Assembly (NCBI RefSeq): GCF_044704955.1
Contig: NW_027251843.1
Location: forward strand, 62,001 to 126,000
Reading direction: 5' to 3'
DNA length: 64,000 nucleotides
DNA from: Pristiophorus japonicus
Lineage: Eukaryota
Shown: positions 2,150 through 44,819 of the stretch, in pieces
Numbering within the stretch: the stretch's first letter is position 1
Layout: each line of letters begins with the position of its first letter
Translations under genes and position numbers: made by a program
The notes under the pieces: model-generated
Databases searched by the model: none
What the model was told of the DNA's origin: nothing
Seen by the model: only the letters and a program-made list of their open reading frames with translations

Positions 2150-3443
2150 CAGTGCTGGGAGATCTCCGGGAACAATCCACAGGAAAGTTGGTTCACCGTC
2201 CCTTTGTGTGTGACTGAGAGCATGGCGCTGCCAAGGACTGGGATGATTTCTTTGGTATAGGTCCTTAGTTTAGTGTCGATCCTTGTGAGTTTTGGTCTGT
2301 TGCTTTTGTGCGGCCACAGCTGTTCAAAGTGTTGGACGCTCATGAGAAATTGACTAGCTCCCGTGTCCAGTTCCATGTTGACGGGTATCCCGTTGAGTAG
2401 GACCCTCATCATTATTGGAGGCATCTTGTTGTAAGAACAGTGGACATTGATCGTGTTGACCCGCTGTACCCCAGCGACCCGGGCACTGTCCCCACCGTCT
2501 TTTGGTCCGCGTTCCGACCCTTCCGATTCATATACCAGACGAGCTGCTGTTTTTCTGCACATGCGAGCCAGATGCCCTGTATAGTTGCAGTTTCTGCAAA
2601 CAGCATGCTGAAATCGACACCCCCTTGTTGAGTGCCTTCCCCCACATCTCCAGCACAGACCACTTCCATTGTTTCCGAAGGATGAGCTGCGTCTGGCTGA
2701 TCTATTTTGAGCTTCTCTCAGTTTGTAGTTGATTGCTCGCCTTGTGGGTTGATAAGGTGTGCACGGCCGTTCATGTGGCCCTTGATGGCTTCTGGCGCCA
2801 CTGCCTACTGTTGAAGGCCTGTTCTTCTGCCTTTGTCTGTGTGTGGGGGTAGCGGCTTGTTTCACGCTGTGAACCCCTTGTTCCGATGTTTTGTTAGTTG
2901 TCGTACCCGCAGTATAAATCAACCTCATTTCTTCTTCTCCTACCAAGAATGTCTGTGCGACCAGTGCTGCTGCCTCTAGGGTCACGTTCTTGGTCTCTAT
3001 AAGCTTTCGGAATATGCCTGCATGGCCTATTTCTTCAATAAAAAAGTCTCTCAGTACTTCTCTCCTTAGTTCATCGGAGAACTCACATAAACTAGCTAGC
3101 CTCCGAAGTTCCGCCACAAAGGCGGGTATGCTCTGGCCCACACAGCATTTGTAGTTGCAGAACCTGTGTCTGGCTATGTGTAGGCTGCTCGCTGGCTTCA
3201 GGTGGTCTCTTACCAGTGTGCTCAACTCCTCAAATGACTTGCTTGCTGGTTTCTCGGGTGCCAGCAGGTCCTTCATTAAGGCGCATGTTTTCGAGCCACA
3301 GCTAGTCAAGAGATGGGCTCTTCACTTGTCTGCCTTATCGTCGCCCAACCAGTCATTGGTTAAAAGCTTTGCTGGAGCCTTTCTATAAAGTCCTCCCAAT
3401 TGTCTCCAGCATTGTATTTCTCATCTGAGCCGTTGGTAGCCAT
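2122..3443 (-). pseudogene. gag-pro: Gag-protease of Gypsy element A (frameshifted)
   Basis: ORF 2122-3309 has CWRCGGRH..C and CRNCNYTGHLARMC zinc knuckles and the aspartic protease motif MELDTGAS. An upstream ATG at 3443 is in another frame. Confidence 0.88.
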
Positions 3444-3478
3444 TCTGTGGATTCTGTGATCCCATAACTCGTCGCCAC

Positions 3479-3745
3479 TGTAAAGTCTTGACCCTGCAGT
3501 ACAGACTTACATGAGGCACATGCTGAAGTCAAGGTTACTCTGGACCTGCACCTTTATTTCACAGCTCTCGAATGCCACACTTGCCTGAGACCTCCTTTAT
3601 ATACCTGTGTGGAACAGGTATGCAGTGTCTCCTGAAAGTGTACCCCTGGTGGTCAAGTATGCTTGTGGTTACAGGTTATATCTAGTTACAGTCATGTACA
3701 GCATGGTAAGATACAGTTATATACAGTAGTGTGAGATACATGACA
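3479..3745 (-). repeat. 5' LTR of Gypsy element A (267 bp, TG...CA)
   Basis: On the - strand it starts TGTCATG and ends TTTACA. It contains AATAAA and is followed by the PBS at 3477-3468. Confidence 0.85.
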
Positions 3746-5277
3746 TAAACCACCAGTCTCAGCTGGCCGTGCCGTTCCTGCAACAGCACTGTGCTCAGAC
3801 TGTCCCTGCTGGCTGCCATCTCCAGGAAAAACTCTCTCCCCTGATCAATCGATCCTAGGGCCGGTGTGGTCTGCAGCCTTTCTTTGAGTTGTTTAAATGC
3901 TGCCTTGCAACCCTCGTCCCAATCCCACTCCACTCCCTTGTGTAGGAGCTGGAGCAGAGGGGCTGCTGTGGCAGCATAATCCTCAATGAAGTCTCTGCAG
4001 TATCCTGTTAGCCCCAGAAAAGATCTCACTCCCGTTACTGTGTTGGGGGTTGGTAATTCCTGTACTGCCTCCTTTCTAGCCTTGTCAATGGCTCTTTCCC
4101 CAGCACGCACCGTCAGTCCTAGGAATTTGACTTCCTTCTGGCCGATCTGCGCCTTCTTGGGGTTAACTTTAAAACCTGCCTCCCTAAGTAGCTCCAGCAG
4201 CTCAGCCAGCAGTGGGCCAAACTCCTCACCCTCACCGGTGAATAGGAGCAGGTCGTCCACATACTAGACCAGCTGCCGGGGTCTGCTAAAACCCTTCAAG
4301 CAGTTAGCCATGCATTGATGAAAAATGCTGGGGCTGTTATGAAAACCCTGGGGCAGGCAGTTCCAAGTGTACTGTTGGCCTTTAAATGTAAAAGCGAACT
4401 TGTACTGGTCCTCCCTTCGCAAGGGAATGGACCAAACCCGTTGGAAACATCCAGCACCGTGAAGGTGGTTGCGGATGCTGGAATACTTCCAATGAGGTCG
4501 GCAACAGCTGCGACCGTGGGTACACAGGTGGGGATATTACGGTTGAGTACCCGGTAATCCACCGTGGCTCTCAGGAATTGTCCGGTTTCTTAACCGGACA
4601 CAGTGGAGAGTTCACATTGGTGGCTATCGGTCTCAATAGCCTCTGTTTAACCAAAGAACTCATGGCCATTTCCATGTCTGCCTCTGCTTCCCTGGGGAAA
4701 TTGTACTGCTTTTGTGGTCGGGTCATGGGGTCCCCACTCACACTGACCTCGACTCTGTTTAATCTCCGACAATCATGTTTGTGAGTGGCAAACGTGACGA
4801 GGTGTACTCGCACAACAGCCTGGTACTCCACTGGTGTGTTACTGACCAGTAGTTCAAGGTTGTAACCCTCCTTTGACTTCATTGTACACAGGGTCCCCTT
4901 TCCCTGTTTCTCTGGGATGACTGCTACCTCACTTTCTTTACTGTTACAGGCTGCCCCCCACAGACAATGGTTTCTTAAATCCACGAGAACCCGGTGACCT
5001 ATAATAAAGTAGGCACCAGGATTCCTTTTCCCTCCTGCTCCCACTTCATCAGGACACACGTCCACTTAGTGTGCAGTGTCACTAATTGAATGGACAGTGG
5101 GATGGAGAATGAGCCAGCCTGTTCATTGCCCATGAATCCCATTAGGCTGTACGGGGTCCCGTTTGATAGAGGTGAGGCTGTGGGGTCATCTGCATAGACT
5201 GTGGTGCATGATGCTCCAGTGTCCAGCAAATAAGTCCCCTTTACTCTCTCCACCTCCATCTCGACATACGATTGCAT
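3746..5277 (-). pseudogene. pol: Protease-RT-RNase H (tether) of element B, disrupted
   Basis: LLDTGA, RPQKQYNFP, YVDD, VRSFLGLTGYCRDFI, LLQERHGQLRLVVY. Interrupted at 3745 by element A. Confidence 0.88.
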
Positions 5278-5320
5278 CGTACACTAGGGGACACAGGTAG
5301 ACAGGCTGTGCTGGTTTTCG

Positions 5321-7100
5321 TCATAAATCTGGGTGAGATGGGGCAGATGGTATCACTGCACCGGTGGCTGTGGCTACCTTCCCCGGACCCATTAGTGCGG
5401 TTCGGAGTACAGCCATCACGGTCTCAAATGTTTGGGTAGAGACCGACGGCTCGGTCTTTTGGGCTGGGACTGTGGGATTCTTTCCTACCCTGTCCTTCCA
5501 GGGATTCCAACAGTCCTTCCTCCAATGCCCATTCTTCCCACACCCAAAGCAGTTACACTTGGTTTCGGAAGGGTTACCCCCTTCCTGGTGCCACTCTTTC
5601 TTTCCCTGACTGGGTTTTAACTCATGTACCTTTCCCTTGGGTGGGTGCTCTTCCCCCCTGCAGTTCCGATATGCCATGGTCAGTTGCCTGATCACTGTTT
5701 CCTCGGTGGCGTGGGGTCCCTCGGGTCAAACCAAAGCTCTGCTCTGGCTTTGATCCGGGCCAGGCTATTCGCCACTATGCTCCGGAGCCATTGTGCCCGT
5801 TCGCCCGGTGTAAGGTTTGCCCGGTCGAGAGCCATACTGCAGGCTCGCTGATACACAGGCCACAGCCTGTCAGCGAAAGCCTGAGGGGTATCTCCCACAA
5901 GCTGCACTGTCCTCTCCACTCTGGAGAAGGGACTTCCCTCATTTAGACCCATGGTCTCCAGAACTTCATCCCGGACATCATCATATGTACCCCTGCCCTT
6001 TCTGCACGCCGCCAAAAGGGACTGGTACAGCTTGCTGTCCAGGGAGAAAAGGAGCAGTTTTACCTGCTCTGAGTCATCACATCCGCTAATCTCGGCTGCC
6101 TGTTCCACTTCCATGAAGCGGACGGAGGGGCCTCCCTTATGTGTAAGCTTACTCAGGTGGCTTACCATAGCCCTCAACTGTTGGGTAGTGTGGGGAACCA
6201 CGAATTGGCTCTCAAGAACCCCCGGTGCTCCACCCACAGGCGCGCTGAACTTTTGCTGCCGGACCGGACACATTGGTCCAGGCTTTCAGTTCTGGCTCAC
6301 CCTTCTCTCCCTGCTGCCAAACTGAGTTAAACCCCGGCACCACAGGTGGTGGTGGTCCGTACTCCCTGCCTGCCTGAGCAATTGTCCCTTGTCCCTCCTT
6401 CCTGCTGCCCAACCGAGTTGTTCCCCGGCGCCACAGGGGGTGACTGAACAGTTTTCTCCTCCTCTTCCAGGTCTGCCCGGGTCGTACCCGGACTTATGAG
6501 GCACACCATGCCTCTTGCCCTGGACAGAGCGCGGTTTAAACTTTCAATTTGCTGCTGGCAGGGGCTGTGATCTCCCAACTCAAACCCCTTAGTGCTGGTT
6601 ACTCTGTAGGCTGCCTGGATGTCTTTGACGCTCTCCTCCTGCTCTTTCATTTGTCTATTAAGGCGAGTGTTCTCTTCTTGCAGTATCAATTCATTTTTCT
6701 TAGCCTCGGTGACCTGACACTGCACATAATCCAACCTATTCCTGAACTTCTTCCCTGTGTAAAGCCTTTCCTCGTTGTGCTCATGTAACTCTCTCATTAA
6801 CCTTTCCCCTATGATTGTTTGTGCACTAGACTGTTCCTCTGCCTCTTTCAGTTCAGCCATTAGTTTCTCTACTGTGGAATCTAAGAGTTGGACCTGTTTA
6901 TGCAGACATACTAGCCAAATTGCCTTTTCCACTGCCTTTTTGTGAGTTTTTCCCTCTGTCCACTGGACTGCAGCGTCCCCTGGATGCTCAGCACGCAACA
7001 GATCGCGTACTCACTTCTTTGTTACATTCACTCTTTTGACCACATAGGAAGCAATCCTCTCTTCTATTTTACTTCTTTTCTCACAACCAAAGTCTGTCTC
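5321..7100 (-). pseudogene. gag: Gag of element B (frameshifted; single CCHC knuckle)
   Basis: Three consecutive ORF fragments end in CX2CX4HX4C, directly upstream of the protease. Confidence 0.8.
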
Positions 7101-7121
7101 CTCACATCACTTTTGCCACAT

Positions 7122-7138
7122 TCCCTTCGTGGTCGCCA
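7122..7138 (-). promoter_or_regulatory. Primer-binding site complementary to the tRNA-Arg(UCG) 3' end
   Basis: The + strand reads TCCCTTCGTGGTCGCCA, matching the vertebrate tRNA-Arg-TCG 3' end plus CCA as recalled. It abuts the LTR-like sequence starting at ~7140. Confidence 0.75.
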
Positions 7139-7139
7139 T

Positions 7140-7800
7140 TATGGCTGGTGTTTTGGTCAGGTTTCTCTGACTCCTTGTTGTTTTCGAGGCACCCTACACC
7201 CTGGATTCTAGACTGTGGACTGATTTGGGGGTTGTGAGAAACTGAGACAGAGTTGGGTAAGATGCAAAACTGGTTTTATTGTGTTCAAACAGAGTAAAAG
7301 GCACGTTTTTAATAATCACAGTAATCAGGTACAAATAGGGAGAAATGGCAACTCAAATGATCTATATTTGGGAAGAACACATAACACATATAACAGATTA
7401 AAAGAACACAGTCCTCTCACCTCCCAAAATACTTATGCACTAACCCTGGAAGGGGAAAACACACACGAACATCAACAGGTAGGAACAGTAAGAAAAACCC
7501 AACCTCCCAGACCCACTATCTAGCTAGGTTAGAACTCTGGGGTTTCAGGGACCATGCTCACCAATTCCCTTTTGACAGTTCCCACTCCGGGGTTCGCCTC
7601 AGTTGTCCTGATCCTGTTCCAAACTCCAGGGTTTGCCTTAGTTGTCCTGATCCTGTTCCAAACTCCAGGGTTTGCCTTAGTTGTCCGGGTTCGGTAGTCT
7701 GTACCCCGGACCTCATTGGGGATTTCAACCTACGGTTTCCATGAGGTTGGCTCCCTTTTGCCTTTTTCCTTTTACAACTTAGATCTCCACTTGAAAAATC
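7140..7800 (-). repeat. Truncated 5' LTR of element B, with an internal 39-bp tandem repeat (7584-7686)
   Basis: Shares blocks with solo LTR 11559-13017 (TTTATTGTGTT..GTAAAAGGCAC; GTTCAGGG.CCATGCTCACCAAT). The 39-bp unit ACTCCAGGGTTTGCCTTAGTTGTCCTGATCCTGTTCCAA occurs ~2.6 times. Confidence 0.7.
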
Positions 7801-7869: not shown

Positions 7870-10359
7870 TTTGGGAACCCTTCAATGATGAATCCGAAAA
7901 GGAGTTATGATTTAGAAGGATTAGTCGATAATATTCTGGCCCAGTATCAAGGTATGTACGGCAGAATATGGATGCGTTTGCAATTCACAAGCACGATTGC
8001 GGGAGAGTATCTAGGGTAGAGGTGAAGATAGATGGGGATTCGATGACACGACCCCAGAAACAGTATAATTTTCCCCGGGAAGTAGAAAGGGATTTGGAAA
8101 CTGCTATAAATTCCCTGGTGGATCAAGGTGTGTTGAGGACCACAGCCACACATGTAAACTCACCCCTATGGCCAGTAAAGAAGCCCGATAACTCATGGAG
8201 GGCCACGGTAGATGACCGAATCCTGAATAAAAATATTCCAGCCTGTGCGCCCACGGTAGCAGTGGTAGCGGATTTGATCGGGAGTATCCCTGCGGCCACA
8301 ACAACTTTCACAGTGCTGGACATTTCAAATGGGTTTTGGTCCATTCCCCTGAGACGGGAGGACCAGTATAAATCTACCTTTACCTTTAAAGGTCAGCAGT
8401 ATACGTGGACATGTCTTCCACAAGGGTTTCACAACAGTCCCTCGATCTTCCACCAAAGTATGGCCGAGGCATTAAACAGTTTTAGTCAGCCAGATCGGTT
8501 GGTCCAATATGTGGACGACCTGTTGTTATTCTCCGAAAGTGCGGAGGACCACGGGCCATTATTGAGTGAATTACTGCATTTGTTGAAAGAAGCAGGTTTT
8601 AAAGTAAATCCCCAGAAAGCTCAAATAGGCAAAGAGGAGGTGCAGTTTCCAGGTTTGACCATTGGGGCAGGAGAAAGGGCCATAGATGGAGCTAAGAGAA
8701 AGACAGTCCAGGAACTACCTGTTCCTAAGGACGTGTCTGGAGTAAGGTCTTTCCTGGGAATAACGGGTTACTGCAGGGAATTCATAGAGGGATATATAAC
8801 CATGGCAGCTCCTTTGTTGAGGCTTCTTAGGAAAGGAGTAGAGTGGGAATGGAGTGAGAGTTGTCAGGAAACTTTCATTTGGTTAAAAGCGGTGTTACAG
8901 ACAGCACCAGCATCGGGAGCAGTAAATGGGGACCAGGACTTTAGTCTGGAGGTAGCAGCGACTGGGGACAGTTTGAGTGCAGTGTTACTCCAGGAGCGAC
9001 ACAGCAAGCTGAGACCGGTGGCCTACGTCTCCCGAGTTCTCACCGAAGTAGAAAAGAGTTTTTTCAAATTGCAAACGACATCTATTTGCAACTTTTTGAG
9101 CAGTAAAGCATTTTCGGTCGCTCACAGGGTTAGCTACAGTAACTTTACTGACCTGTCACACCACGACACAATTGTTACTGGATGGTAGAATGAAAGATGG
9201 GACAGTGAGCAGTAACAGGATTGCCCGCTGGACATTGTTGCTGACTCAGTTAGACCTGAAGGTCGAGAGGCCAGGAGAACCAAAGCTAGCCCCGAACTTG
9301 GTTTATCCGGGGGCAGCTCATGTGTGTTCAGTGGAAGGAGTGTGGGATGTAGATGTGAGATTCTGAGCAGGAGAACACCCGACAGGTAGGGACATCTATG
9401 TAGATGGGTCTAGTTCAGTAATAAACAGAGAGAGAAAGACAAGCTGTGGGATTTACAATCCAGAGGCAGTGATAGAGAAAGCCATAAAATCCCCAACACT
9501 TTGAGTATGCAGCAGACCGAGCTAGCAGCGGTAGCGTATGTAGTCACACACCCGAACGAATTCCCAACTCCCTATACGATATGTTCAGACTCCATGTTCA
9601 TTTCTAACTGCTGTACAGAGTATTTAGCCATATTGGCGAGGCGAGGGTTTAAGTCCTCTGACGGAAATCCGTTGGTGTTGACTCCATTGTTAAAAGTCAT
9701 TTTGGACGTCACGGGTTGGGACCAGAAGGATTACTACATCCAAAAGGTCAAAGCACAATCTAAGACAGAGCCCAAGTGGGAAGGGAATGAGAAAGCAGAC
9801 ACACTGGCTAAAACAGGGGCAGGAGAAGGGACACCTTGGGACCCATATCACTGTGGACAGATCACGGCTGTAACAGGCAGAGAGAGGCCCAAAGAAGTCC
9901 CATTGTCGCCTGATTTAAAACAGGCTCAGCTACAGGATGCAGACCTTAGAGCAGCGATTAGGGACAAGATAGATGGGAAGCATGTTGCGGGACCTTTGGG
10001 AGCTGCAGACATAGAAGTAAAGCAAGGAATGTTGTTCAAGGGAGATAGTTGGATCGTGCCAGGACAGTGCAGGGAAGAATTCTTGCAGCTGGTGCATGTG
10101 GGTCCAGGAGCTGGACATCCAGGGCCAGAAACAATGTGGAATAAAGTAGAAGCTGTGGGATGGTGGCCCGGGCTTAGAAGTGATGTCAGGGATTATTGCC
10201 AGAATTGTCTGGTATGTGCCACAAACAATCCACACCCCCACCGAGGAAGGCTCCGTTGGGACACACGAGGAGTGTAGAGGGGTCATGGCAGTCTATACAG
10301 ATAGATTTCATTGGGCCACTGTCCACCTCAGGCAGATGCAATAAATATTCCTTGGTGTT
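7870..10359 (+). pseudogene. pol: Pol of retrovirus-like element C: RT, degenerate RNase H tether, second RNase HI, integrase N-terminus
   Basis: RT with QYVDD (7968-9188). RNase HI motifs IYVDGS (~9395), QQTELAA, ICSDS, KVKAQ and GNEKAD. Integrase H..GHPG...WWPGL...CQNCLVC and QIDFIGPL. Interrupted by element D at 10360. Confidence 0.92.
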
Positions 10360-10554
10360 TGTTATTATTAATGCTTGGAGGTCACCAGACACCAGAGGGC
10401 GCCGCGGTCAGAGTTGTACACATGTGGCAGGTATGCTTGGTCACCTGTATATAAGCTGTGTGTCTTTGTCACGCAGGCACTCTTGGGCTGGAATAAAGAC
10501 GGATCAGGTTGCACCTGAATGAGTTTACAGTAACCAGACTCTTGAGTCATTACA
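10360..10554 (+). repeat. 5' LTR of Gypsy element D (195 bp)
   Basis: TG...CA ends, internal TATA and AATAAA, PBS 2 nt downstream. Confidence 0.85.
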
Positions 10555-11558
10555 ATTGGCGACGAGGTAATTTAAGAACCTTCGCATGCACAATGGGCAC
10601 TGTTGGAATTTCGGAGAGATTTGTGGAGGGCGAGGAGTGGGCAGATTTTGGCGACCGCCTGGATCAGTATTTTGTGGCCAACCGCATGGAGGCAGAGGCC
10701 TCCACAGTTAAGCACAGGGCAGTTCTCCTCACCCTTTGTGGTCCGAAAATCTTCTCTCATGAAGAATCTTCTCTCGCCTGTACGTCAGGCGGAAAAAGGG
10801 TACGAGGAATTGTGTACGTTGGTGGGTGACCATCTGAAGCCAAAAGAGGGGATCATCATATCACGCTACCGTTTGTACACGCATGTTCGTGTTGAGGGCC
10901 AGGTCGTGTCGGGATTTGTCGCCAACCTGCGATGTCTTGCTGAGCCGTGTAAGTTTGGGAACTTGCTGGAAGACATGCTGCATGATGTCTTCATGATAGT
11001 TATCTGCCATGATGTGATCCTCAGGAAGCTGTTAGCTGCAGAGACGCTGGATTTGAAAAAGGCCATCGCGACTGCCCAGGCATGCATGACAACGGATGAT
11101 AATCTGAGGCAGATATCATCGAAGAGTGGGAGTTCCACGGCAAGTACTGTAAACAAGATGGCGTCGCCTTTGGGCAGAGCTGCTTACGCAAAATGTGCTG
11201 CTGCTCAGAGACCGGCAACAGGTTCGAACCAGATTTTACCCTGTTGGCGTTGTGGGGGCAATCATTGGCCTCATCAGTGTCGGTTTAGACAATACTGATG
11301 CAATGGATGTTCGAAAGTGGGGCATTTTCACAGGATGTGTCCACAACGGTGCAAGCGTGGTGCGGCTCACTACGTGGTTGATGAGGACCAGTTCAGTGAT
11401 GGCCCGGATACACAACCTGATGTGGAAGTGAATGGACTGTATTCTGTGCAAGAGATAGATGATAGTCATTAACGTGAAGCTGAATAGCATGCCTGTATCA
11501 ATGGAGCTGGACACGGGTGTGAGCCAGTCGATAATGAGCCAATGGACATTCGACAAGC

Positions 11559-13017
11559 TGTAAGGGGTGGTTTGCAGGGGGTCAGCTATCCCTTCTGACC
11601 TTATATGAGCGGTTCCGAATCGCTCCCACACCCTTGGTTCTCGACACTGGAATTATGAAGGGACTGTGACAGACTTGGACAGACAATCGGTTTCAAGGTA
11701 GGAAGCAGGTATGACTTTATTGTGTTGAAAAAAGAAGTAAAAGGCACACCTTTAATAACACACACAGACCAATACACACTGAAGGGTACAACACATTGAA
11801 TAAAATGTCAAATTACAGCCTGTGGGGAAAAGAATACAGCTTAAACTCTAAATGGGGTAAAGAGGAGAACGCAGATACATTTACACAAGTTATCCCAGCC
11901 TCCCCACTCCCAATTCCCCTAACTAACTAAGTTATAGCTCTGAGGGTTCAGGGGCCATGCTCACCAATCCCTTTAGACAGTTGCTGGTGAATCGCGGTTT
12001 CGGGGTTCGCTACACTTGGCCTTCTAGGCGAGCCGTACCCCGGACGGAGGAGAGGACTTCGGACTGCGTAGTCTTCAGTTGGGGTGCATCCGTTGATGCG
12101 GTAAGTTGCGTTTTGGATGTATGGGGTAAGTACCCACTTTCTTTGGTTAGGAATAGTTTTAGTTAGTCCCTTTTGGTAATTTCTCCCCCGTTGGGTCGTT
12201 CAGAAGTAGATTGTAGAGCGGTTGTCAATTTGCTTGCTGACAACCTTCCGTTTCGTGGGCCTCGTGCTCGGTCAGTTCCTGATCAGTTCTGGTAGTTTCC
12301 TTCACTATTCCATTTCTTCACTGTAGAGCAAGCAGGCTGCTTGTTTGTGTTTGTGTTCCAGTCTGTGCGAGTTCCAGTCTGTGTTCTGCTTCTCTCCTGT
12401 GTTCTGCTAGTTTCTGTGTTCTGCTAGACTTTCTTTGTAAAACTGGGGGATAAATATATACCCCAAAAAAAGGCTCCGTTATCTCCCATCAAATCTCTTG
12501 GGCTCTGTTTAAACTGTTCTGTCCATTGATTTTCAAATGTCTCCTTTATCAGCAGTAACTCGATTAGGGTGTGAGAATGTGCTATCACTGGTTTTGCATT
12601 GTTTTAGGATTGTCCAGTTTCTTGACCATGATTTCCATTGTGCTTGATTGGGTAATTCGATTATCTCTTAGAGGGTGAACAGCCTGGGGTCCTTAATGCA
12701 CGAATTTGGCCCCACCTCCTGTATTTGGTAACTCTTTCTCGCAGCCAAAATGTTGTAGAATATTAAAATTGATATGCTCCTTCCCATAGATGTTTAGGGG
12801 ATCTCAAGCTTCTGTAATTTAGGTTCATTTTGAATTCCCTTTCCTATGAGTCCAAACACTGGGTGGGGTGGGGGGGGTCTGCATGAATGCATTCCCTTTT
12901 ATCCCCCGCAGGTTCCGTCTGCCCCTTTAAACTCATTTTAAAAGCCCAGAAAGGGATTCTTCTCCTCTGTAGGGGAAAGGTACCTGGAATCTTTGCGAGA
13001 TTTTGGTAAATTCTACA
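11559..13017 (-). mobile_element. Solo LTR (1459 bp), related to the LTR of element B
   Basis: TG...CA ends with a perfect 4-bp TSD AAGC (11555-58 and 13018-21). The protease reading of D resumes across it. Confidence 0.88.
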
Positions 13018-13058
13018 AAGCTGTGGGACACTAAGGCTATGAAACCGAAGCTGAGTCT

Positions 13059-14572
13059 TGTAGCAGGTGCAAAATTCACAACAACCCTCCCCCCCCCGCC
13101 CCCGAGTGTTTGGGCTCATTCGAAAGGAAAGTTAATTTGGGACTATCTACCGAAAGTTTGGAACCCTAAAGTGCTTATTGAAGAAACTACGAACTTTAAT
13201 AGAATTTTGGATTTTAAAAGACAAATTCAAGGCTGTAGGTGGACCTAAAGAACTAACAGGAGACAGTCTAACTAAGTGGAGCTACCTGGGTGTGAGGACT
13301 AAGTTAACCTGTCTGGAGGGATGAGTATTCAAAAATCCTTCCCCCACAAGAAACATTAATGTCACAAAATCACCCAGAAGTAGCTACCGATCAACATGGG
13401 TCTGGACAACCATTTCAGCATATACATCACAAAGAGACTCAATCCAGCCAGTATGCGAAAGAATAAGCACAAAAGGACATTGCAATTAACAAACTAATAT
13501 TTCCATCAGGAAACAGTTTTCGAACATCAACTCACCCAAAACATATCAACTTTTAATGAGCCCACCAAAATATTACAAAGGTGAACCAAGCCCGCCAAAA
13601 TTACACAAAGGATTTTAAACAGGTTTTGTGCCAAGATTAGAAACACTGAAATCATATAACTGGCCCCTGTTTTCAACAGAGGGTATGACACACTTTGCTA
13701 TACAACCGAGACCAAGTTGTTGTCATCAAGACAAAGAGAGAAACCAAAGTGACAGTTGTAAACTGACTTCTCCAGCCTTGAAGTCCTGAAGTCCTGAAGG
13801 CAGGAAGAACATCACCATCGCGGCAGCAACCAACCACAGTCAACGTGGTATCAACGGAAAACCACCGCGATCGACCAAACTCGAACAAAACTCCAACGAG
13901 GAAAAACTGAAGAATTGAAAAAGTTTCCACTCTACAATCTAATCCTGACCTACCAACGGGTAAAACATTACCTAAAAGACTGTAGAAACCTATTTCTAAT
14001 GAAGAAAACCAGGTACTTACCACATAGATCCAAAACACACCTTACCGCATCAGCGGACTCAACCCAACTGAAGATTGCACAGCTAGAAGTCTTCTCTGTC
14101 ATTCGGGGTATGGCAAGCAGAACCTACCACATCCAGTGAACCCCAAAACTGTGATCTACCGTTAACTGTCCAAAAGGATTGGTCAGCATAGTCCCTGCCT
14201 GCCCTGGAGTCCAACCTAGCTAGGCTTAGGTATTGGGAGGTGGGAGGTATCATTTTACTGCAACCACCTTTGAATGTGTAGTGTATGGTACTTTATTAGA
14301 TTGTTTATAAGTACCTTGTACTTTTCCTTGTATTGTCCTTTATTAGAGTGATTGTAAGTTTGGCCTTGTATTTTCTTACTAGAGTAATAAGCTTGTATAA
14401 CCTTGACTGTAATAAAACCAAAGTTTCTTTTTGCATCAAACCAGTGTCCTTTGCACTTTTGACACCCTCCCCAAATAAATCCAGAGTACAGAACCCAAGG
14501 GGGTGGGAGCGATTCGAACTGCTCAAGTTGGTCAGAAGGGAGCCTGACCCCCTCATAGAGAACACCTTTACA
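13059..14572 (+). mobile_element. Solo LTR (1514 bp), distant relative of 11559-13017 in the opposite orientation
   Basis: TG...CA ends, TSD GTCT/GTCC, AATAAA near 14411. Its 3' end resembles the reverse complement of 11559-11670. Confidence 0.85.
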
Positions 14573-16259
14573 GTCCAGTCAATGCCAGATTGCATACTTA
14601 CACTAAGGAACTCATACCGGTGCTCGGCAATGCAGCAATCGAGATGTCATATGACATTGTGGTACACGAGCTACCATTATGGATCACCCCAGGTAATGGT
14701 CCAACTGTTCGGCAGGAATTGGCTCGAGAAAATCAAGCTGAACTGGAATGTTGTCAAGATGTTACCCTTGGTGGATGATACTTCATGTGCTCAAGTATTG
14801 AAAAAATGTCCTTCTTTGTTTGAACTGGGCATTGGTAATTTTATGGGAACCAAGGTGCAGATTCACCTGGACTCCAATGCAAGGCCTGTCTATCACAAAG
14901 CTTGGTCTGTTCCATACACGTTGAGGGAGAAGGTTGAAATTGAGCTTGACAGACTCCAGCATGAAGGGATCATATCACTGGTCAAGTTTAACGAGTGGGC
15001 TAGTCCCATTGTTCCTGTGTTGAAGTGTGATGGCACTGTCAGGATTTTTGGAGACGACAAGGTTGCAATTAACCGGTTTTTGAAACAGGATCAGTATCCA
15101 TTACCGATGGCTGATGACCTGTTCGCCATGTTAGCTGGTGGAAAGTCGTTCACAAAACTGGAACTGACATCGGCCTATATGACCCAGGTGCTTGTCAATA
15201 CTTTGAAGAAACTCACCTGCATGAACACCCATAAAGGACTGTTCATCTACCACAGGTGTCCTTTTGGGATTCGTTTGGCTGCAGCCATATTTCAGAGGAG
15301 TATGGAGAGTTTACTGAAGTCCATTCCTAGAGCTGTCATGTTTCAAGATGACATTCTGGTCACAAGTCACGACACTGCTGAACATCTGAACAATCTTGAA
15401 GAAGTCCTACAGCATCTCGACAAAGTGGGACTCAGGCTGAAACGATCGAAGTGTGTATTCATGGCACCTGAAGTCGAATTTCTCGGGAGGAAGATTACTG
15501 CTAGTAGCATTAGGCCCACTGATTTGAAAACCAAGGCCATCAAAAATGCACCCAGGCCTCAAAATGTGACGGAGCTGCATTCATTCCTTGGGCTACTCAA
15601 CTACTTTGGCAATTTCTTACCCAGATTGATCACTTTACTCGGGCCACCGCATGTGTTACTAAGAAAAGGCGACAACTGGGCCTAGGGTGTGTCTCAAGAT
15701 AGAGCCTTTGAGAAAGCCAAAAATCTGCTATGTTCAAACAAGTTGCTTGTTCATTATGATCTGTGTGAGCCTCTTGTATTGGTCTGTGATGCTTCATCAC
15801 ATGGGGTTGGCAGTGTACTCCAACAAACAAATGAATCGGGCAAACTACAACCTGTTGCATATGCTTTGAGAAGTCTGTCTAAAGCGATAGAAGGCTTACA
15901 GTATGGTAGAGAAAGAAGCTTTGGCCTGTGTGTATGATGTTAAAAAAATGCACCAGTACCTGTTTAGTCTTCGTTTTAAACTAGAAACGGATCACAAGCC
16001 ACTCATTTCATTGTTTGCGGAAAACAAAGGTATTAATACCAATGCATCACCCGCATTCAAAGGTGGGCGCTGACATTGTCTGCCTATGATTTTGTCATCC
16101 ATCATAGACCTGACACTGAGAATTGTGCCGCTGCACTGAGTCGTCTGCCTTTGCCCACACCTGAGGTGGAGATGCCTCAACCTGCAGATCTACTGTTAGT
16201 AATGGATGCTTTTGAGAGTGAAGGGACTCTGCTCAACAAGTCAGGATCTGGACCAGCCA

Positions 16260-16840
16260 TCTGGACAGGGAGACTAATGAGGACCTCGACCCATATCCTA
16301 GCACCAGTCCTGACCGAAACGCAGGTTAAAGAGGTCACACGGGACAGGTTTGTCAGATCTGTATGGTACTCTGAAGGGGCTGCATTGGGAAGAAGCTCAC
16401 AATATGGGCAGGCAGCACCAGCAGGATAAACTGCTGTGGAACCCCGGGTTACACAGGAATGGAGGGTAGGGGATCAGGTAATGGTCAGGAATTATACCAG
16501 AATAGGGGCATTTGAACCACTGTACAAAGGACCATATAGCATTGTAGACAAGGCAAGCCCTATGGTGTACACGATCCAGTTGCCAAAACATATCAAATGG
16601 TTCCATATAAACCAGTGTAAGCTGTACAACCCCGGAGAGAAAAGTAAAAAGCGGGCGAAGGCCCCAGGAACAATAATGAGTTTGATCAGTGTAAGCCTCC
16701 CACCAATACTGTGGGATGATGAGGATGGAGAAGTAAGGGACGGAGCAGTAAGGTGGAGTGGTCAGGTACTGTGACCTAGCGTGCCCTGGACACCTCCTCC
16801 ATCTCCACCCCCGAGCCTCTGTAAGCCCAAGCATTGGGAT
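16260..16840 (+). pseudogene. Integrase C-terminus (GPY module) of a C-type element
   Basis: TGRLMRT..., then WRVGDQVMVRNY...FEPLYKGPYSIVDKASPMVYTI. Confidence 0.85.
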
Positions 16841-16962
16841 AAAAGGAGAGGGAAGCAGTGATTGTAAAAAGGAGTTATGTACATTTGTGAATAACTGAAG
16901 GAGGACCTGTGAGGGGGAGGCCCCCCAGAGCAAAGGTATTTCTTTCATTTTTGTCTTTATAG

Positions 16963-18365
16963 GAGCGAATCGAGCCAAGGGTACGAGAGGAGGTGGACAT
17001 TGTGGATAGGCCTGTGGATGGCCATTATTATTAAAGGATTGGGAGATCGGGGAGACACCGAGACATTCCTTACACACGGGTGTATGGGAGGAACCAGCCC
17101 CACTGTAACTCAAGGGGGAGCCATACGGAGTAACAAGGGCACAAACACCTCTGCTCACACTGGGAGCTGGCCAGGGTGGTTAGGGTCAAATTCGACCAAG
17201 TACTCCAGACAAACCGAAGGTAAACTTGGGGAGGTGTCAGTGTCCTGCCCCAAGCTAAACATCACGACCAGGAATGTACGGGTGAGAGAGGGGAGACGAG
17301 TTTGTCTGGAATGTAAAGGGATTACCCCCATGGGAGGGTGGTGGTGGTTACAGAAAACAGGCAGGGGAAAAGTTAATGCATCGACAGAATGGGAGAAACT
17401 GGGTAATAACTCAAACAGGCGGAGCACAGGAACAAGAAAAGGGGAAAAATTGTGTTGGGAAAAGTGGTGGAAGGCGGAACAAGGGATTTATGTCTGTGTG
17501 GTTGGATCTAGCCACAAGTGCAGGGGAGGTGTGGCGATTGTTTTTAAATGACAATGGCAGGATTCTGGGTCAGGAATGAATTGGACGCAGGGTTTATTTT
17601 CTTGTGTGACCTTGAACCCGCCAAAAACAGTCAATGCAACCGAGCTGATCGCGAGCAGATTAAAACCTCTCCCTAAAATGCTGGAGATTCCAATCCAAGA
17701 AATTCCATGTCCTGTCCTAAAACCCGGGCCTAAGAACGGGCTGGTGTTAATCCCAACAGGGAAAATGTTGTATCATACTGTGTATTATGAAGTAGTGTCG
17801 GTTATTCTAAATTTTAACAGAGTTACAAATACCCCGGTGGTGTCCGCCAGAACCAGAAAAGTTACATAAGCGTTTGTTAAAAGAAATATTTAAGCAATTC
17901 TATCAGAAGAATTATGGGGACAAAAGTTAGGTGGAAGCAGACAAACCAATAAGCAACAGCCAGACGGGTTGGGGGAGGCAAAAAAGGGGACTGATGAATG
18001 ATGTGGGTACGGCATTTAATACAGGTACATCGCGCAGTTGAAAGTCCAAGTAAACACCTTCAGGGACTAGTTAAAGAAGTTACTGGAGGAGGGTAGTGAC
18101 ATAGAGGGTAACGAATTACAGGAGGACCAGGCAATGACAATCCATTTGAAGGAGATGATAGCTGAGGTGGAGACACACACTCAGACCATCAATGCTTTAA
18201 TCAAGGAGGGTAGAAACGCGTCAGATCAAGCTGCTCAGAATGACGGGTGTGTCATGTACTGAGCTTAGTTGCTAAATTAAGGATGCAGTAATTTAGAGGA
18301 TTTAAAACAAGGCCACGTACCGTCGTGGGTCAGTGACAAGCATCGAAAGGCTTTGAGTGTCTATA
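16963..18365 (+). pseudogene. env: env-like gene: signal-like N-terminus, Ig-like domain, furin site, fusion-peptide-like and heptad region (disrupted, 3'-truncated)
   Basis: Polypyrimidine tract plus AG at 16939-16962. ORFs 17000-17551 and 17576-17869. RQKR|GLMNDVGTAFNTG begins at 17976, followed by a helical region to ~18360. Lies directly after integrase. Confidence 0.7.
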
Positions 18366-18370
18366 ACAAC

Positions 18371-19013
18371 AGGTTGATACAATCAAGCAATGGAGCCCAT
18401 GGATTAATTGGCCAGAGGGGAAAATCAGTCCCTCTGGAGATTCCAAGCCTGTGAAAACCCAGGACATCAAAGGATCCCACAAGGCGTGCATTCTTGGATA
18501 ACGGGGCACAAAAGATAAGGAGTTATCTTTTGCCCTGTCGATTCTGTGTGTGAATTGTGGCCATCCGACTAGATCCAGACCCATCATCACAGCCATCGAG
18601 ACTCAACCAGATGCATTAACTGAAAGGCAGCCCAGCAGGAGATGTGTAGAATTGAATGGATATTGAATGGATATATCTGTAAGAGCTGAGAACAAGAGCT
18701 CAGAGAGAGGAACAACAGGTCGAAGAAACACCTCAGACCAGCAGGTCAATGAACAACGGCCACGAAGCAGCAGCGGGGACCCAACACCTTCCCTCGCTCT
18801 AAGAGCCGACAATCGACAACAGCAACAGCAGGCTGGATGGGTGATTGTATGTCTTCGGTCAATCTCTAAGAAGTCTTGTTCCGTACTTTTTAGGGTTTTT
18901 TTGTGTAATAAACAAACAGTTGGATTTTATTCTAAACTTTGCTTTATGTGTGGTACTTCCTGTAATTCCCGAGGTCTATGAATCAGAGTAGAGTGGGAAA
19001 CCAACACCCTACA
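18371..19013 (+). repeat. 5'-truncated LTR, same family as solo LTR 45126-45940
   Basis: Long near-identity to the reverse complement of 45126-45757. Contains AATAAA and ends CCCTACA. Confidence 0.85.
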
Positions 19014-20931
19014 CCACATGAGGTCATCACCGGGAGGGTTATGTGCACCCAACCCATGTGTTGGTGCCAGTCCTCACAGAAGCTCAGGTCAGGGAGGTAA
19101 ACCGGGACAGGTTGGTCCAGAATCTGTTTGAGGTTTTAAAACAGATTCACTGGCAGGCAGCCAGTAACCTGGGGAGCCAGCACCGGGAAACATTGGTTGT
19201 TGCTCGAGTCCCGGAGAAGCCACGAGTGGAAGGTGGGAGACCAGGTAATGTTCAGGAACTGTGCCCGAGTGGGGGCATTCGAGCCACTGTACATGGGGCC
19301 TTATAACATCGTAGATAAGGCCAGCCCCATGGTATATGCAGTCAGACTCCCGAACCGCACAAAATGCTGTCACATCAACCAGTGTAAGTTGTTTAACCCC
19401 AAGGGGGTGACGACAAAGGCAAAGAGAAACCAGGGCACAATAATGAGCCTGGTGGACGCGGGTCTTCCTCCCATGGTGTAGGACGATGATGATGACCCAG
19501 ATGGCGGGACAGTAAGGAGAAACAGTCGGATACCACGGCTTAGGGCGCTGTGGACACCTCCTTACTCACCGGCCGCGAGCCGCAAGATTTTAACTGGGGG
19601 CACTCGATAACGCAGAACGAACGGAATATATATGTAAATAACGAAAGCCCAACCTGTGGAGGGAAAAACCGCTCACAAAATGGTTGTGCTGTATCTGTCT
19701 TAATCAGGAAATCAGAAGAAACGGGAGCCCGGGTGTAATTGATCAGTTATGGACCCACAATGCACCTCCCGCAGCAGAAGATGACGGAATTCCAGATATT
19801 TCCGGTTTTGGTGACAAAATATCATCAGGGGGATTGTAGCACCAGCTTTCTGGCCATTTCTATCAACAATATTTTAAATCCTTAAATCCAAATCCCCAAG
19901 AAAGATCTGTACTGTTTGGCGAGCTTGTCGGGGTGACACTGAGGTGCATTCATATTCAACCGGATATTTCACACTGACAGGCTGGGTGGCAGGGAACCCA
20001 GGCCCATTGATGTCATCACCATCTAAAGTGATTCCTGGGAACAATATCCCGAGAGGTAACTCAGAGACACTGTGCCTTTGCATTATTAAAGCACAGTCAC
20101 CACTCAGTCCCAACCCAAACTGGTGCAAGGCAGGAAATGGCCGGCCCATTGTCTTCCAGGAGATAAGCCGGTTAAGCAAGATCGGTTTGTGATCGAAACC
20201 CATTACGGGCTAATGGGGGCCATCAACTCAGGAAACGACAGACATCCAGTAATCAGCACCCATTGTCTCTCCAGACGCAAGGCCTGGGAGCGGGAAAACA
20301 AAACATCATTTTTCACAAAGATTTCAAAGACTACGAGCCATTCCAGGCCACAGGGTGGGGAGTCCAGACAGATCACTGGAGTCAATCCATCGGTCAGTAT
20401 TGGTGGGAGGAAAGGTGATGGGTTTTGGGGATATAAGGAGCCACTTTGCAACAAGCTCCAGCTCAGGAAGAAGAAAGCTCCGGAAAAAGCCCAGGAAAAA
20501 GCTCAGGAAAAATCGCAGGAAAAAGTCCAGGAGGGAGACGTTCAGGAAGAAGCTGCAAGCAAGACAACGGGCAATCAGGGTGAGCATATTGCCTGCGCCT
20601 ACACATCCACAAGACCACTTAGCTGTGTGAGGGGGTGATTGTAAGTCCCAACCAAACCCAAGGGGTTTAGTGCTGGGGGGATCCTGTGTTAGTTTATTTC
20701 ACGGCAGTGTTCATTTATTAAGCCGTGGTAACTTAGCACGGCACGGCTTATTGGACAAGCCAGGGTTGTACTGTTTTGCACTGTTTATGAGTGGTGTTGT
20801 TAATATTATTAAACACTAATACGGTTCAGCCCAAAAAATGTGTGTCCGAGTCTGATCTGTCCATATAATCCTATCGTCCAGAACTTGTAGTAGGAGGTGC
20901 GTTTTTGGTACGCCCGAGAAAACCACCTATA
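19014..20931 (+). mobile_element. 3' part of retrovirus-like element E: integrase C-terminus, unknown accessory region, PPT and 3' LTR
   Basis: PHEVITGRV..., FEPLYMGPYNIVDKASPMVY (paralogue of 16436-16774). Purine tract GAGGGGGTGA precedes TGTAAG at 20640. Putative LTR spans 20640-20931. Confidence 0.75.
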
Positions 20932-20936
20932 GGCAA

Positions 20937-21480
20937 CCTCTCAGTACTGCCCCTCCGACAGTGCAGCGCTCCCTCAGTACTGCCCCTCGGACAGTGCAGC
21001 ACTCCCTCAGTACTGCCCGTCTGACAGTGTAGCATTCCCTCAATACTGCCCCTCTGACAATGCGGCACTCCCTCGGTACTGCCCTTCCAACAGTGCGGCA
21101 ATCCCTCAGTACTGCCCCTCCGACAGTGTGGCACTCCCTCAGTACTGCCCCTCCGACAGTGCAGCACTCCCTCAGTACTGCCCCTCTGACAGTTCAGCAC
21201 TCCCTCAGTATTGCCCGTCTGACAGTGTAGCATTCACTCAATACTGCCAATCTGACAATGTGGCACTCCCTCAGTACTGCACCTCTGACAGTGCAGCACT
21301 CCCTCAGTATTGCCCCTCTAACATTGCAGCACTCCCTCAGTATTGCACCTGTGACAGTGCAGCACTCCCTCAGTATTGCCCCTCTGACAAAGTGGCACTC
21401 CCTCAGTACTGCACCTCTGACAGTGCAGCACCCCCTCAGTACTGCCCCTCTGACAGTGCAGCACTCCCTCAGGACTGCAC
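20937..21480. repeat. 33-bp minisatellite (CACTCCCTCAGTACTGCCCCTCTGACAGTGCAG)n, ~16 copies, SINE-derived
   Basis: Visible tandem periodicity. The unit matches the SINE body at 23690-23725, and a SINE head follows at 21480-21580. Confidence 0.92.
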
Positions 21481-22904
21481 AGTAGTGTATCTCTTTAGTT
21501 TGCATTCAGGTCCCTGGAGTGGGGCTTGAACCCACGATAAAATATTGCATCACTGGATGCCGCACAGTCTGAGCTGTGAGTCATATCCCGACCTCAGTTG
21601 GAACTGCTAACTCAGAACAAACAACAACAGCAACTTTTATACAGCACCTTTAACACAGTAAAACTCCCCGAGCGCTTTACAGGAGACTTATAGAATAAAG
21701 ATTGACAGTGAGCCACGTCAGGAGACATTGAAAATTGCAGCTCAGTCAAATTGTGAGGGAAATTGGCAGTGCTGTCTTCATACCAAAAGGGGGCGATGTT
21801 GCTTCTGAGAAGACCAAATTTTTTGACAATTTCTGTGTCACTCAATTGATTGGTTTGTAAAACCCGTTTGTTCCAAACCTCCAGTCAGGTTTGCAGAATC
21901 ATTTCCAGTTCCCCACGTGTCATTTGATGGTGGATCTCAGCGTGTATCTCCTCGTCCGCTCGTGAGGCGGTGTCTCAGACCGATTGGCCAGTCAGCAGCC
22001 ACTCCGCACTGCAGCGAGCATTGGCAGGCCATTCCACTGTGGGAGGCCTCACTGCGGAGCTCGGTGCACGGGGTATATCCACACAGAGACGCTCTGCCAC
22101 CAGGTACAGCAGCAACAACCTGCATTGCTATAGCAACTGGAACTTTAGAGCAACATCCCGAGGCAGCTGACAGAGGCGTAATCTGGTCAAAGTGGTGCTG
22201 AGCCAAAGGGGGAGGGGCTGGGAGGGTGATCAAAGCCCTCAGTCACAGATTGGGTTTGAAGGGAGGTCTTAAAAGAGGAGAGGGGTGGAGTGGCAGAGAG
22301 GTTTAGGGAGCAGGGAGTTCGGGCCAAGGCAGCTGAAGGCACGGCCCCCAATGGAGGGGGAAGGGAAGGGGGGATGGATAAGAAGCCTGAGCCAGATACA
22401 GCAGCCCCTGAACACAACAACAACTTGCATTTATATAGCGAGTGTTGTGACAATGACAGACAGTGAGAATATAACCCTGATAATGTAACACAGTATTTGC
22501 AGCACTTGACACTGTGGGGAAAACTTGTAATTTTAAATCCATGAACTGTACATAAGCGAGAGCAGGACCTGTTTGTGGCCGGTGCGGAGATCACCACTTA
22601 CAGAAGGTAGTTACTGCAGGGAATCCAGGGCCACAGTGACCTCCTGGACTAGTTTCCATCGCCTCGGGCGGGGGGCGGGGGTCGGAGAGGAGTTTCCCAG
22701 ATTTATTTCCCCCAATGGGTTTTTTAGCTGGTTTTTCGCCTCTCCCAGGAGATCAGGTAGCTTTGGGTGGGGTGGAGAGTCTATACTGTGATACACAAGG
22801 TATCACAATTGTGTGGGACGGGCTGGATGGACCACAGGGTCTTTACCTGTCCGTCACTGTCCGCGGGTTTGGGTTTCAAAGATGTGGAGCTCAATTGGAA
22901 AGAA

Positions 22905-31337: not shown

Positions 31338-31390
31338 ACAGTCACATACACACACACACACACACACCTACAGACAGTGCTGGCTAACAG

Positions 31391-31431
<41 letters not shown>

Positions 31432-33890
31432 CAGACAGTGTTGGGTAACAGTCACACACACATACACACACACAACCTACAAACAGTGCTGGGTAACAGT
31501 CACACACACACACACACCTACAGACAGTGCTGGGTAACAGTCACACACACACACACACCTACAGACAGTGCTGGCTAACAGTCACACACACACACACCTA
31601 CAGACAGTGCTGGGTAACAGTCACACACATACACACACACAACCTACAAACAGTGCTGGCTAACAGTCACACACACACACAACCTACAAACAGTGCTGGC
31701 TAACAGTCACACACACACACACCTACAGACAGTGTTGGGTAACAGTCACACACACATACACACACACAACCTACAAACAGTGCTGGGTAACAGTCACACA
31801 CACACACACACCTACAGACAGTGCTGGGTAACAGTCACACACACACCTACAGACAGTGCTGGCTAACAGTCACACACACACACACCTGCAGACAGTGCTG
31901 GGTAACAGTCACACACACATACACACACACAACCTACAAACAGTGCTGGGTAACAGTCACACACACACACACACACACACACCTACAGACAGTGTTGGGT
32001 AACAGTCACACACACATACACACACACAACCTACAAACAGTGCTGGGTAACAATCACACACACATCTACAGACAGTGCTGGGTAACAGTCACAGACATAC
32101 ACACACACACACAACCTTCAGACAGTGCTGGCTAACAGTCACACACACACACAACCTACAAACAATGCTGGGTAACAGTCACACACACACACACCTACAG
32201 ACAGTGCTGGCTAACAGTCACACACACACACACACCTACAGACAGTGTTGGGTAACAGTCACACACACACATACACACACAACCTACAAACAGTGCTGGG
32301 TAACAGTCACACACACACCTACAAACAGTGCTGGGTAACAGTCACACACACACCTACAGACAGTGCTGGGTAACAGTCACACACATATACACACACACAC
32401 AACCTTCAGACAGTGCTGGGTAACAGGCAGACACACACAAACACCTACTTAAGATGAAATAGCAGCGCATTTGGAAATCAGTGACAAGATCAGTCCAAGT
32501 CAGCATGGATTTATGAAAGGGAAATCAAGCTTGACAAATTTTCTGGAATGTTTGAGGATGTAACGAGTAGAGTGGACAAAGGGGAACCTGTGGATGTGGT
32601 GTATTTGGACTTTCAAAAGACTTTTGACAAGGTCCTACACAAGAGATTGGTGTGCAAAATTAAAGCACGTGGTAATGTGGTGATATACTGACGTGGAGAG
32701 AGAACTTGTTGGCAGACAGGAAGCAGAGAGTCGGGATAAACGGGTCCTTTTCAGAATGGCAGGCAGGGGTGCCGCAGGGCTCAGTGCTGGGACCCCAGCT
32801 ATTTACAATATATATTAATGATTTAGATGAAGGAATTGAGTGTAATATCTCCAAGTTTGCAGATGACACTAAACTGGGTGGCGGTGTGAGCTGTGAGGAG
32901 GATGCTAAGAGGTTGCAGGGTGACTTGGACAGGTTAGTTGAGTGGGCAAATGCATGGCAGAGGCAGTATAATGTGGATAAATGTGAGGTTATCCACTTTG
33001 GTGCCAAAAACAGGAAGGCAGTATATTATCTGAATGGCGGCAGATTAGGAAAAGTGGAGGTGCAACGAGACCTGGATGTCATGGTATTACAGTCATTGAA
33101 GGTTAGCAAGCAGGTACAGCAGGCGGTGAAGAAGGCAAATGGCATGTTGGCCTTCAGAGCTAGGGGATTTGAGTACAGGAGCAGGGAGGTCTTACTGCAG
33201 TTGTACAGAGCCTTGGTGAGACCTCAGCTGCAATATTGTGTTGAGTTTTGTTCTCCTAATCTGAGGAAAGATGTTCTTGCTATTGAGGGAGTGCAGCGAA
33301 GGCTCACAAGACTGATTCCCGGGATGGCAGGACTGACATATGAGGAGCGATTGGATCAACTGGGCCTGTATTCACTGGAGTTAATAAGAATGAGACGGGA
33401 TCTCATAGAAACATATAAAATTCTGACAGGACTGGACAGGTTAGATGCAGGAAGAATGTTCCCGATGTTGGGGAAGTCCAGAACCAGGGGTCACAGTCTA
33501 AGGATAAGGGGTAAGCCATTTAGGACAGAGATGAGGAGAATCTTCTTCACTCAGAGAGTTGTGAGCAAATGGAATTCTCTTCCACAGAGAGTTGTTGAGG
33601 CTAGTTTGTTAGATATATTCAAGAGGGAGTTAGATATGACTCTTACGGCTAAAGGGATCAAGGGATATGGAGAGAAAGCAGGAAAGGGGTACTGAGGGAA
33701 TGATCAGCCATGATCTTATTGAATGGTGGTGTAGACGCGAAGGGTCGAATGGCCTTCTCCTGCAGCTATTTTCTGCATTTCTATGTTTCTACAGGCGGTG
33801 CTGGGTAACAGTTACACACACACACACACATCTACAGGCGGTGCTGGGTAACACTCACACACACACACACACACCTACAGGCGGTGCTAG
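31338..33890. repeat. CA-rich compound minisatellite (ACCTACAGACAGTGCTGGGTAACAGT(CA)n), interrupted by a CR1 at 32450-33790
   Basis: About 25 visible units at 31338-32447 and ~3 more at 33790-33890. Confidence 0.92.
32450..33790 (+). mobile_element. CR1 LINE RT and 3' end
   Basis: ORF 32706-33695 has GVPQGSVLGP, YINDL and FADD. Confidence 0.93.
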
Positions 33891-41164: not shown

Positions 41165-41416
41165 GGGGAGCTGTGCCCCAGAGGTAGTGCCTTCAGGAGT
41201 GAGATGGGGAGCAGATCACAGGCAGCCTGTGGTGTAGAGGGGAGACATTTCACCGGCCGAGGGCAGGTGCTGAGCCCGTTTACCTGTAAGAATGAGGTAA
41301 GTGGATGGGGAAAATGGGCCGGGCACTGAGGTAACGTCCTGTGTTGCTGGTGGAACTCCTGCTGTCTGCTCCGTCACATGTGACAAACACGCAGACACAT
41401 CAGGCGGACATCTGGG

Positions 41417-44800: not shown

Positions 44801-44819
44801 AAGACTGAACTTCGAACCC

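Follow-up and report, generated by a model that had tools for sequence, protein, structure and literature searches.

A likely immunoglobulin-like head precedes a paramyxovirus-F-like fusion core in the envelope of shark endogenous retroviruses

The window analysed here is a stretch of 64,000 nucleotides from the shark Pristiophorus japonicus (contig NW_027251843.1), and its positions 16939-18370 hold the front half of the envelope gene (env) of a long terminal repeat (LTR) retrovirus copy that is very likely dead. We find that, across the family to which this copy belongs and in a cartilaginous fish, a single env gene encodes an immunoglobulin (Ig)-like domain followed by an F-type fusion protein. 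We consider it rather probable, though well short of settled, that the envelope protein (Env) consists of a signal peptide, a likely Ig head, a linker and a paramyxovirus-F-like core, with the head serving as the attachment module. The window copy itself is ordinary decayed repeat DNA.

The original prediction, made from the window alone, had read the Ig part and the F-type part as one Env. The motifs that it named are all in place, namely the acceptor tract, the hydrophobic N-terminus, NVRVREG, VCLEC, WWW and EQGIYVC, the cleavage site RQKR↓GLMNDV and the heptad helix behind it (Table 1), and the Ig-type cysteine spacing is borne out at 61 residues. In the window copy, the Ig frame ends at a premature stop, and different frames hold the cleavage site and the heptad; that they form one protein therefore cannot be shown from the window alone. 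The union of the two parts is seen family-wide in other copies. In one dispersed copy, a natural frame of 476 amino acids (aa) starts ahead of the Ig, takes in RWKR↓GLMSDV and reaches the heptad, and with three stops read as X it extends to 676 aa, just before the membrane anchor. In a younger sister family (family 2, the window's being family 1), the env frame is 796-806 aa long and contains the Ig motif, the furin site and a transmembrane (TM) segment in all six copies fetched, which were picked for long frames. These frames have a hydrophobic N-terminus, DQGIYLC and R-Q-K/R-R↓GTLNDILTG. Unbroken relatives have the layout LTR-gag-pol-env-LTR, with a single frame spanning signal peptide, Ig, furin site and membrane anchor. 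A skate protein has the Ig, linker, F2 and cleavage site in common with the family (43%).

Searching the 5.9-Gb genome with the Ig-bearing frame gave 150 scored matches of 8570 candidates, so the arrangement is more than chance. About two dozen of these family 1 matches are near-identical (91-99%) and clustered on few contigs, and the others are dispersed. We retrieved the 20 top-ranking near-identical loci together with 20 dispersed ones, the latter picked mostly for long open frames; the dispersed loci are 82-90% identical to the window env. The Ig lies ahead of the fusion-peptide region in 19 of the 20 dispersed loci, which rules out the local insertion of a host Ig exon. LTR pairs were found in six of eight upstream stretches of dispersed copies (84-89% identity, with TG...CA ends where covered), and two dispersed copies read upstream encode a Gag, with a coiled-coil-like N-terminal part and a CCHC knuckle, and a DTGA protease. 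Family 1 is an old and abundant shark endogenous retrovirus (ERV).

Family 2 gave 150 scored matches of 6797 candidates, about 40 of which have open frames longer than 700 aa by hand count. It is very young, with LTR pairs 97.4-99.8% identical. Its reverse transcriptase (RT) region is identical to the window's at 288 of 402 positions, and a pyrimidine tract and AG like the window's precede env in all six fetched copies. A third family, with 104 scored matches in this genome, has an LPQG-type RT identical to the window's at 116 of 258 positions.

The ratio of nonsynonymous to synonymous differences (pN/pS) in the Ig segment is 0.43 among the 20 dispersed copies (190 non-independent pairs), next to 0.52 and 0.49 in the neighbouring segments. 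Between lineages, pS is 0.74-0.88, which is saturated, against a pN of 0.15-0.35. By these ratios, the Ig segment appears to have been under purifying selection while the virus replicated. The AG of the predicted splice acceptor is kept in most copies that cover it (Table 1). Four sequence runs contained no splice joint at the acceptor, a result uninformative either way as their contigs are of unknown kind.

The head shows the signature of a V/I-set Ig domain, with the B-strand Cys, the C-strand Trp and, about 60 residues on, D/E-x-G-x-Y-x-C in register. The Ig stretches of families 1 and 2 are only 41-47% identical, yet both show this pattern. Pfam Ig_3 scores E 0.0028 on the window's family (model positions 2-76 of 78) and E 5.8e-5 on family 2, both below the cut-off (best 24 bits against a gathering score of 30). 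A profile search of PDB chains with the Ig segment gave CD8 alpha at E 0.0055, a match that weakened with another profile (A4). We also modelled the segment, at low confidence, and all 50 PDB matches listed by Foldseek are Ig superfamily (IgSF) members (antibody, T-cell receptor, basigin/embigin or similar). The nearest folds are embigin, basigin, CD8 alpha, 2B4/CD48 and TREM, at sequence identities of 19% or less. Foldseek of the same model against viral models gave nothing at E 0.001, and an atlas search with one protein gave one unnamed cluster at 0.82. The domain also carries four extra cysteines and N-glycosylation sequons. Taken together, pattern and model indicate that the head likely has an Ig fold. 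The original prediction had gone further and proposed a captured IgSF domain. The Ig-like segment stands, but its capture is unproven: no host donor was found among 46 profile matches from 1.84 billion representatives or in the PDB searches, and no cellular Ig protein matching the Ig stretch was seen among the 46. In the search of viral models, the Env of Walleye epidermal hyperplasia virus 1 weakly matched the fold of the Ig model (rank 13, E 4.9e-3, root-mean-square deviation 17), which may be a hint of an Ig-like part in an epsilonretrovirus Env, or noise.

The F-type nature of the core is suggested by a profile of 36 natural sequences (A5), which matched four PDB chains named 'Fusion glycoprotein F0' at E 3.1e-4 to 1.7e-3, among them 6mjz, which we take to be human parainfluenza 3 F. 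The match extends over some 220 aa in the F1 head and heptad repeat B (HRB), and the same profile matched foamy virus gp130 at E 0.0042. With smaller profiles, foamy gp130 was the only match (E 0.018) or there was none; F0 was missed by single-sequence PDB searches and by profiles A1 and A2. Pfam recognized no fusion-protein family in any Env piece, and there was no direct match to PF00523. The order of elements is that of a class I fusogen, with furin site, fusion peptide, heptad repeat A (HRA), Cys-rich head, HRB and TM segment. At the level of profiles and motif order, the fusion core resembles paramyxovirus-type F. The special tie to baculovirus F and errantivirus Env that had been proposed did not hold, as paramyxovirus-type F0 and foamy Env rank best among the matches to solved structures and the Envs of families 1 and 2 do not match Baculo_F; one distant relative does at E 0.0011, in its tail. 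F proteins carry an Ig-fold domain II of their own (PMC11468914; this and the other papers are cited for the sections examined). The Ig described here lies wholly ahead of the point where all distant Envs begin aligning (profile position ~220), so it is an extra domain, distinct from domain II of F.

Thirty of the 46 profile matches were looked up; five have no label, and the others come from sharks (seven genera), one skate, three frogs and the coelacanth, with no teleost among them. One protein labelled as shark is matched by the genome studied here at 99%. Word-based protein searches were nearly blind, with one and three matches. The full-length Env relatives have 140-185 residues ahead of the core, and all those inspected carry some N-terminal module. 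A bamboo-shark relative is labelled 'Ig-like domain-containing protein' in UniRef, the head of an unnamed distant relative scores Pfam V-set at E 0.0016, and in two frog heads a Cys-Trp-Cys pattern can be recognized by eye, with no Pfam match. Hardly any alignment is possible among the frog and bamboo-shark heads or between them and the family 1 head, and hhalign between heads of different lineages gave probabilities below 3%. In the third family, the core is identical to that of family 2 at 167 of 520 positions, from residue 247 on. Its head is Cys-rich and does not align to the Ig head, and a relative's head has no Pfam match. As a different head stands on the same core, the head looks modular. 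In the frog Mantella aurantiaca, 16 related F-like Env proteins form a cluster, the majority being full-length at 677 aa, which suggests a recent burst in an amphibian.

How such an Env might work is suggested by class I fusion biology. It would be translated from spliced RNA, and the trimer would be cut by furin. The head would stay on the N-terminal subunit and bind a surface molecule, after which the core would refold, HRA with HRB, and fuse the membranes. Paramyxoviruses leave attachment to a second protein; with nothing but env to draw on, a retrovirus must accommodate attachment in that gene's product. The head could instead act on immunity, as a modulator or decoy that virions and infected cells display towards a host IgSF partner, with the F core doing the attaching. 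Its nearest folds are indeed immune and adhesion domains, and mimicry by an Env head has a precedent in the SIRP-derived head of an alpha-like Env, which keeps up to 12 of 19 CD47-contact residues (10.1101/2024.03.17.585361). We regard this as unlikely, since the low identity to the fold matches and the lack of a cellular Ig protein among the 46 matches identify no specific host partner that is mimicked, and an N-terminal module on every full-length relative inspected fits a needed role in entry better than an optional extra.

It is also conceivable that the head is structural, clamping or shielding the prefusion trimer as a folding aid or glycan shield with no specific binding. The extra cysteines and the sequons would suit such a role, as would a head conserved to the same degree as the core. 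That unrelated or barely related modules replace the head on the same core speaks against it, as does the fact that paramyxovirus F folds without such a head, and we find this explanation about as unlikely as the decoy. We think it quite improbable that the segment is a Cys/Trp-rich viral beta-sandwich that is merely Ig-like, or that the weak Ig scores arose by chance. The Ig motifs are in register over almost the entire Pfam model in two families so divergent there, the fold matches are uniformly Ig superfamily, and of the two distant relatives noted above, one independently scores V-set and the other is labelled Ig-like. Finally, the truncated signal-peptide and Ig frame of the window's copy group might have been co-opted by the host as a secreted blocker, as 15 of the 20 near-identical copies keep its 212 codons free of stops within the match while the downstream env is broken. 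We give this hardly any credence: the start codon is missing in all 20 and the Ig part has a pN/pS of 1.45 among them (non-independent pairs), from which we conclude that the group is decaying and not co-opted. We favour the attachment role for the head.

The original prediction had linked the element to lokiretroviruses. Membership of that group is rejected on RT, and the nearest RT of those compared is that of snakehead retrovirus (SnRV). In a hand count over 244 columns, restricted to three rows in the part read of the supplement alignment of Wang and Han (the ERV-L rows lie outside that part), the window's RT shares 110 positions with SnRV (45%), 84 with Loki-Sri (34%) and 81 with walleye dermal sarcoma virus (WDSV; 33%). 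All nine loki rows seen read (C/T)PFGxxNSP, while the window family has LPQGFHNSP and QYVDD, like SnRV. Wang and Han found lokiretroviruses in none of six chondrichthyan genomes (PMC7947760). Errantivirus membership is also rejected, as the RT groups apart from the gypsy RTs of the window and Baculo_F is not matched. Our RT tree has one LPQG-type clade, coelacanth proteins included, apart from gypsy with support 100/99; it holds no named loki or SnRV row and separates the family from gypsy only. The window family has the dual RNase H (tether and RH), a layout common to all retroviruses and so not diagnostic of lokiretroviruses. RT identity and motifs thus place the window family likely in the SnRV group.

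Features of family 2 can be compared with SnRV. Its gag-pol junction has an in-frame TGA-CTAG in all four copies printed, a junction not readable in the window copy. We take the UGA-CUAG context to be an alphavirus-type read-through signal rather than the gammaretroviral UAG-G. The primer-binding site can pair with the tRNA-Arg(CCG) encoded by a host gene, and the SnRV primer is tRNA-Arg. SnRV likewise has an in-frame stop between gag and pol, read through at UAG where family 2 has TGA (PMC13517186). The cytoplasmic tail of Env is about 25 aa in family 2 and 136 residues in SnRV (PMC12193657), and the Env of SnRV itself was not conspicuous among the 46 profile matches. SnRV-like ERVs include elephant shark CmiERV lineage I (Han 2015, PMC4422223) and form clade Huo (Xu et al. 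2018, PMC6001957), which has members in cartilaginous fish, coelacanth and amphibians.

Table 1. Features of the retrovirus copy in the window.
Feature	Position	Strand	Evidence
pol: reverse transcriptase and degenerate RNase H (tether)	7885..9188	+	Pfam RVT_1 4.6e-33, RT_RNaseH_2 1.7e-12; motifs LPQGFHNSP, QYVDD
pol: second RNase H and integrase zinc-binding domain	9414..10277	+	Pfam RNase_H 8.7e-9, Integrase_H2C2 1.5e-17
Nested Ty3/gypsy-type DNA breaking integrase, foreign to the retrovirus	10363..16263	+	missing at this point in dispersed copies
Integrase C-terminal part	16264..16774	+	Pfam SH3_Tf2-1 1.2e-6, MLVIN_C 1e-3; 84-90% to dispersed copies
Predicted env splice acceptor (pyrimidine tract and AG)	16939..16962	+	AG kept in 33/37 covering copies
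Signal-peptide-like hydrophobic N-terminus	16988..17044	+	start codon upstream lost in window copy
Conserved pre-Ig segment, ~60 aa	17045..17221	+	45-66% identity between families; pLDDT <50 over modelled part
Ig-like domain, V/I-set pattern	17222..17548	+	canonical Cys codons 17312 and 17495, Trp run between, E-x-G-x-Y-x-C
Premature stop, lesion of the window's copy group	17549..17551	+	sense codon in 17/17 covering dispersed copies, 4/20 near-identical copies
Pro-rich linker and F2-like start of fusion core	17552..17975	+	broken by stops, frameshifts; distant Envs start aligning here
Furin-type site RQKR	17976..17987	+	R-x-K/R-R at this position in sister families
Predicted fusion peptide, heptad repeat A, start of F1 head	17988..18370	+	C-terminal half read from other copies
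3' LTR remnant, end ...TACA	18368..19013	+	69-90% to 3' LTR region of dispersed copies; their 5' LTRs match too

The lesions of the window copy are stops, frameshifts, a 3' deletion and the Ty3/gypsy element nested in pol, whose own RT has a CPFG motif, 26% identity to the retrovirus RT and a separate group in the RT tree. Homology to dispersed copies begins at the first pol feature of Table 1, and the 5' LTR, gag and protease of the element are missing. The env start codon is present in 17 of 18 dispersed copies and in none of the near-identical ones. Compared with dispersed copies, env breaks off at about 18370 and lacks about 1.2-1.3 kb of its 3' part with HRB and the membrane anchor. This 3' deletion junction is common to only six of the 20 near-identical copies; ten others have a different internal deletion, which leaves the membrane-anchor region about 0.8 kb downstream of where the Ig match starts. 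The near-identical duplicates (91-99%), the window copy among them, cluster on contigs C8 (143-149 Mb), C53, C113 and C1231, and third-family copies recur on the same contigs, which suggests a large duplicated unit.

Elsewhere in the window, part of the LTR remnant (18429-18926) has an inverted copy at 45212-45698 (91-93%) that is closer to it than the LTRs of most dispersed family 1 copies, so the 3' junction of the window copy may join two subfamilies. Directly after the remnant, 19014-19481 is another integrase C-terminal fragment, 68-73% identical to the family's, and no env homology was found behind it. The minus strand carries a further retroviral element with this RT type, in inverted orientation, at 3746-7244, with a gag containing a coiled-coil-like part, a capsid and an RT piece identical to family 2 at 137 of 173 positions. 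It is truncated by a Ty3/gypsy insertion at 1-3745, and none of its env was seen within the window. Tandem arrays at 20867-21592 (33 bp units), 31338-32484 (about 40), 40895-41165 (45) and 44498-44825 (41) sit among many repeats resembling long interspersed nuclear elements.

F-type retroviral Envs and Ig heads are each known; it is their combination, and the clade in which it occurs, that we did not find in print. F-like Envs have been described for lokiretroviruses (PMC7947760) and foamy viruses (PMC11468914). The lokiretrovirus Env, like that described here, has a signal peptide, RxKR, fusion peptide, coiled coil and TM segment, behind a pol with dual RNase H, whereas the RTs differ as noted above; the word 'immunoglobulin' does not occur in the parts examined of that paper's text and supplement (PMC7947760). 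Foamy Env and paramyxovirus F are matched by our profile over the F1 head and HRB. The binding domain of foamy Env has a novel fold (residues 217-543) and is inserted inside domain III (PMC11468914), while the head of the window family stands in front; paramyxovirus F has no attachment head, and in both the Ig-fold domain II belongs to the core. On gamma-type Env, IgV domains with a binding function are known at the N-terminus, and an alpha-like Env carries an IgV derived from SIRP (Hotzel 2024, 10.1101/2024.03.17.585361). They resemble our case in the N-terminal IgV-like module, the Pro-rich linker and the swapping of heads between lineages, but they sit on gamma/alpha-type Envs of surface and transmembrane subunits, with a clear host donor in the SIRP case, whereas the window family has an F-type core and no detectable donor. 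A further paper (10.1101/2021.11.23.469661) deals, in the part examined, with gamma-type Env only. In the literature searched, which excluded subscription papers, we found neither an Ig head on an F-type retroviral Env nor a description of an SnRV-like Env as F-like or Ig-headed.

Whether the F-like Env is ancestral in retroviruses or a replacement in lokiretroviruses was left open by Wang and Han (PMC7947760). The question becomes testable by phylogeny now that an F-like Env is seen with a snakehead-type RT and foamy Env has been solved. We tentatively propose, and it may well prove wrong, that SnRV-like retroviruses of sharks, skates and frogs have a paramyxovirus-F-type Env with exchangeable N-terminal Ig heads. 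If this is true, the F-type Env would be found in three deep branches (loki, foamy and SnRV-like) and would likely be the ancestral retroviral envelope. An Ig attachment head would then be far older than the IgV binding domains of gamma-type Env, and perhaps their source. The family likely represents a third way to join attachment and fusion in one F-type chain, with a head in front, compared with the insert of foamy viruses and the separate protein of paramyxoviruses, and a single shark genome offers natural head variants on one core.
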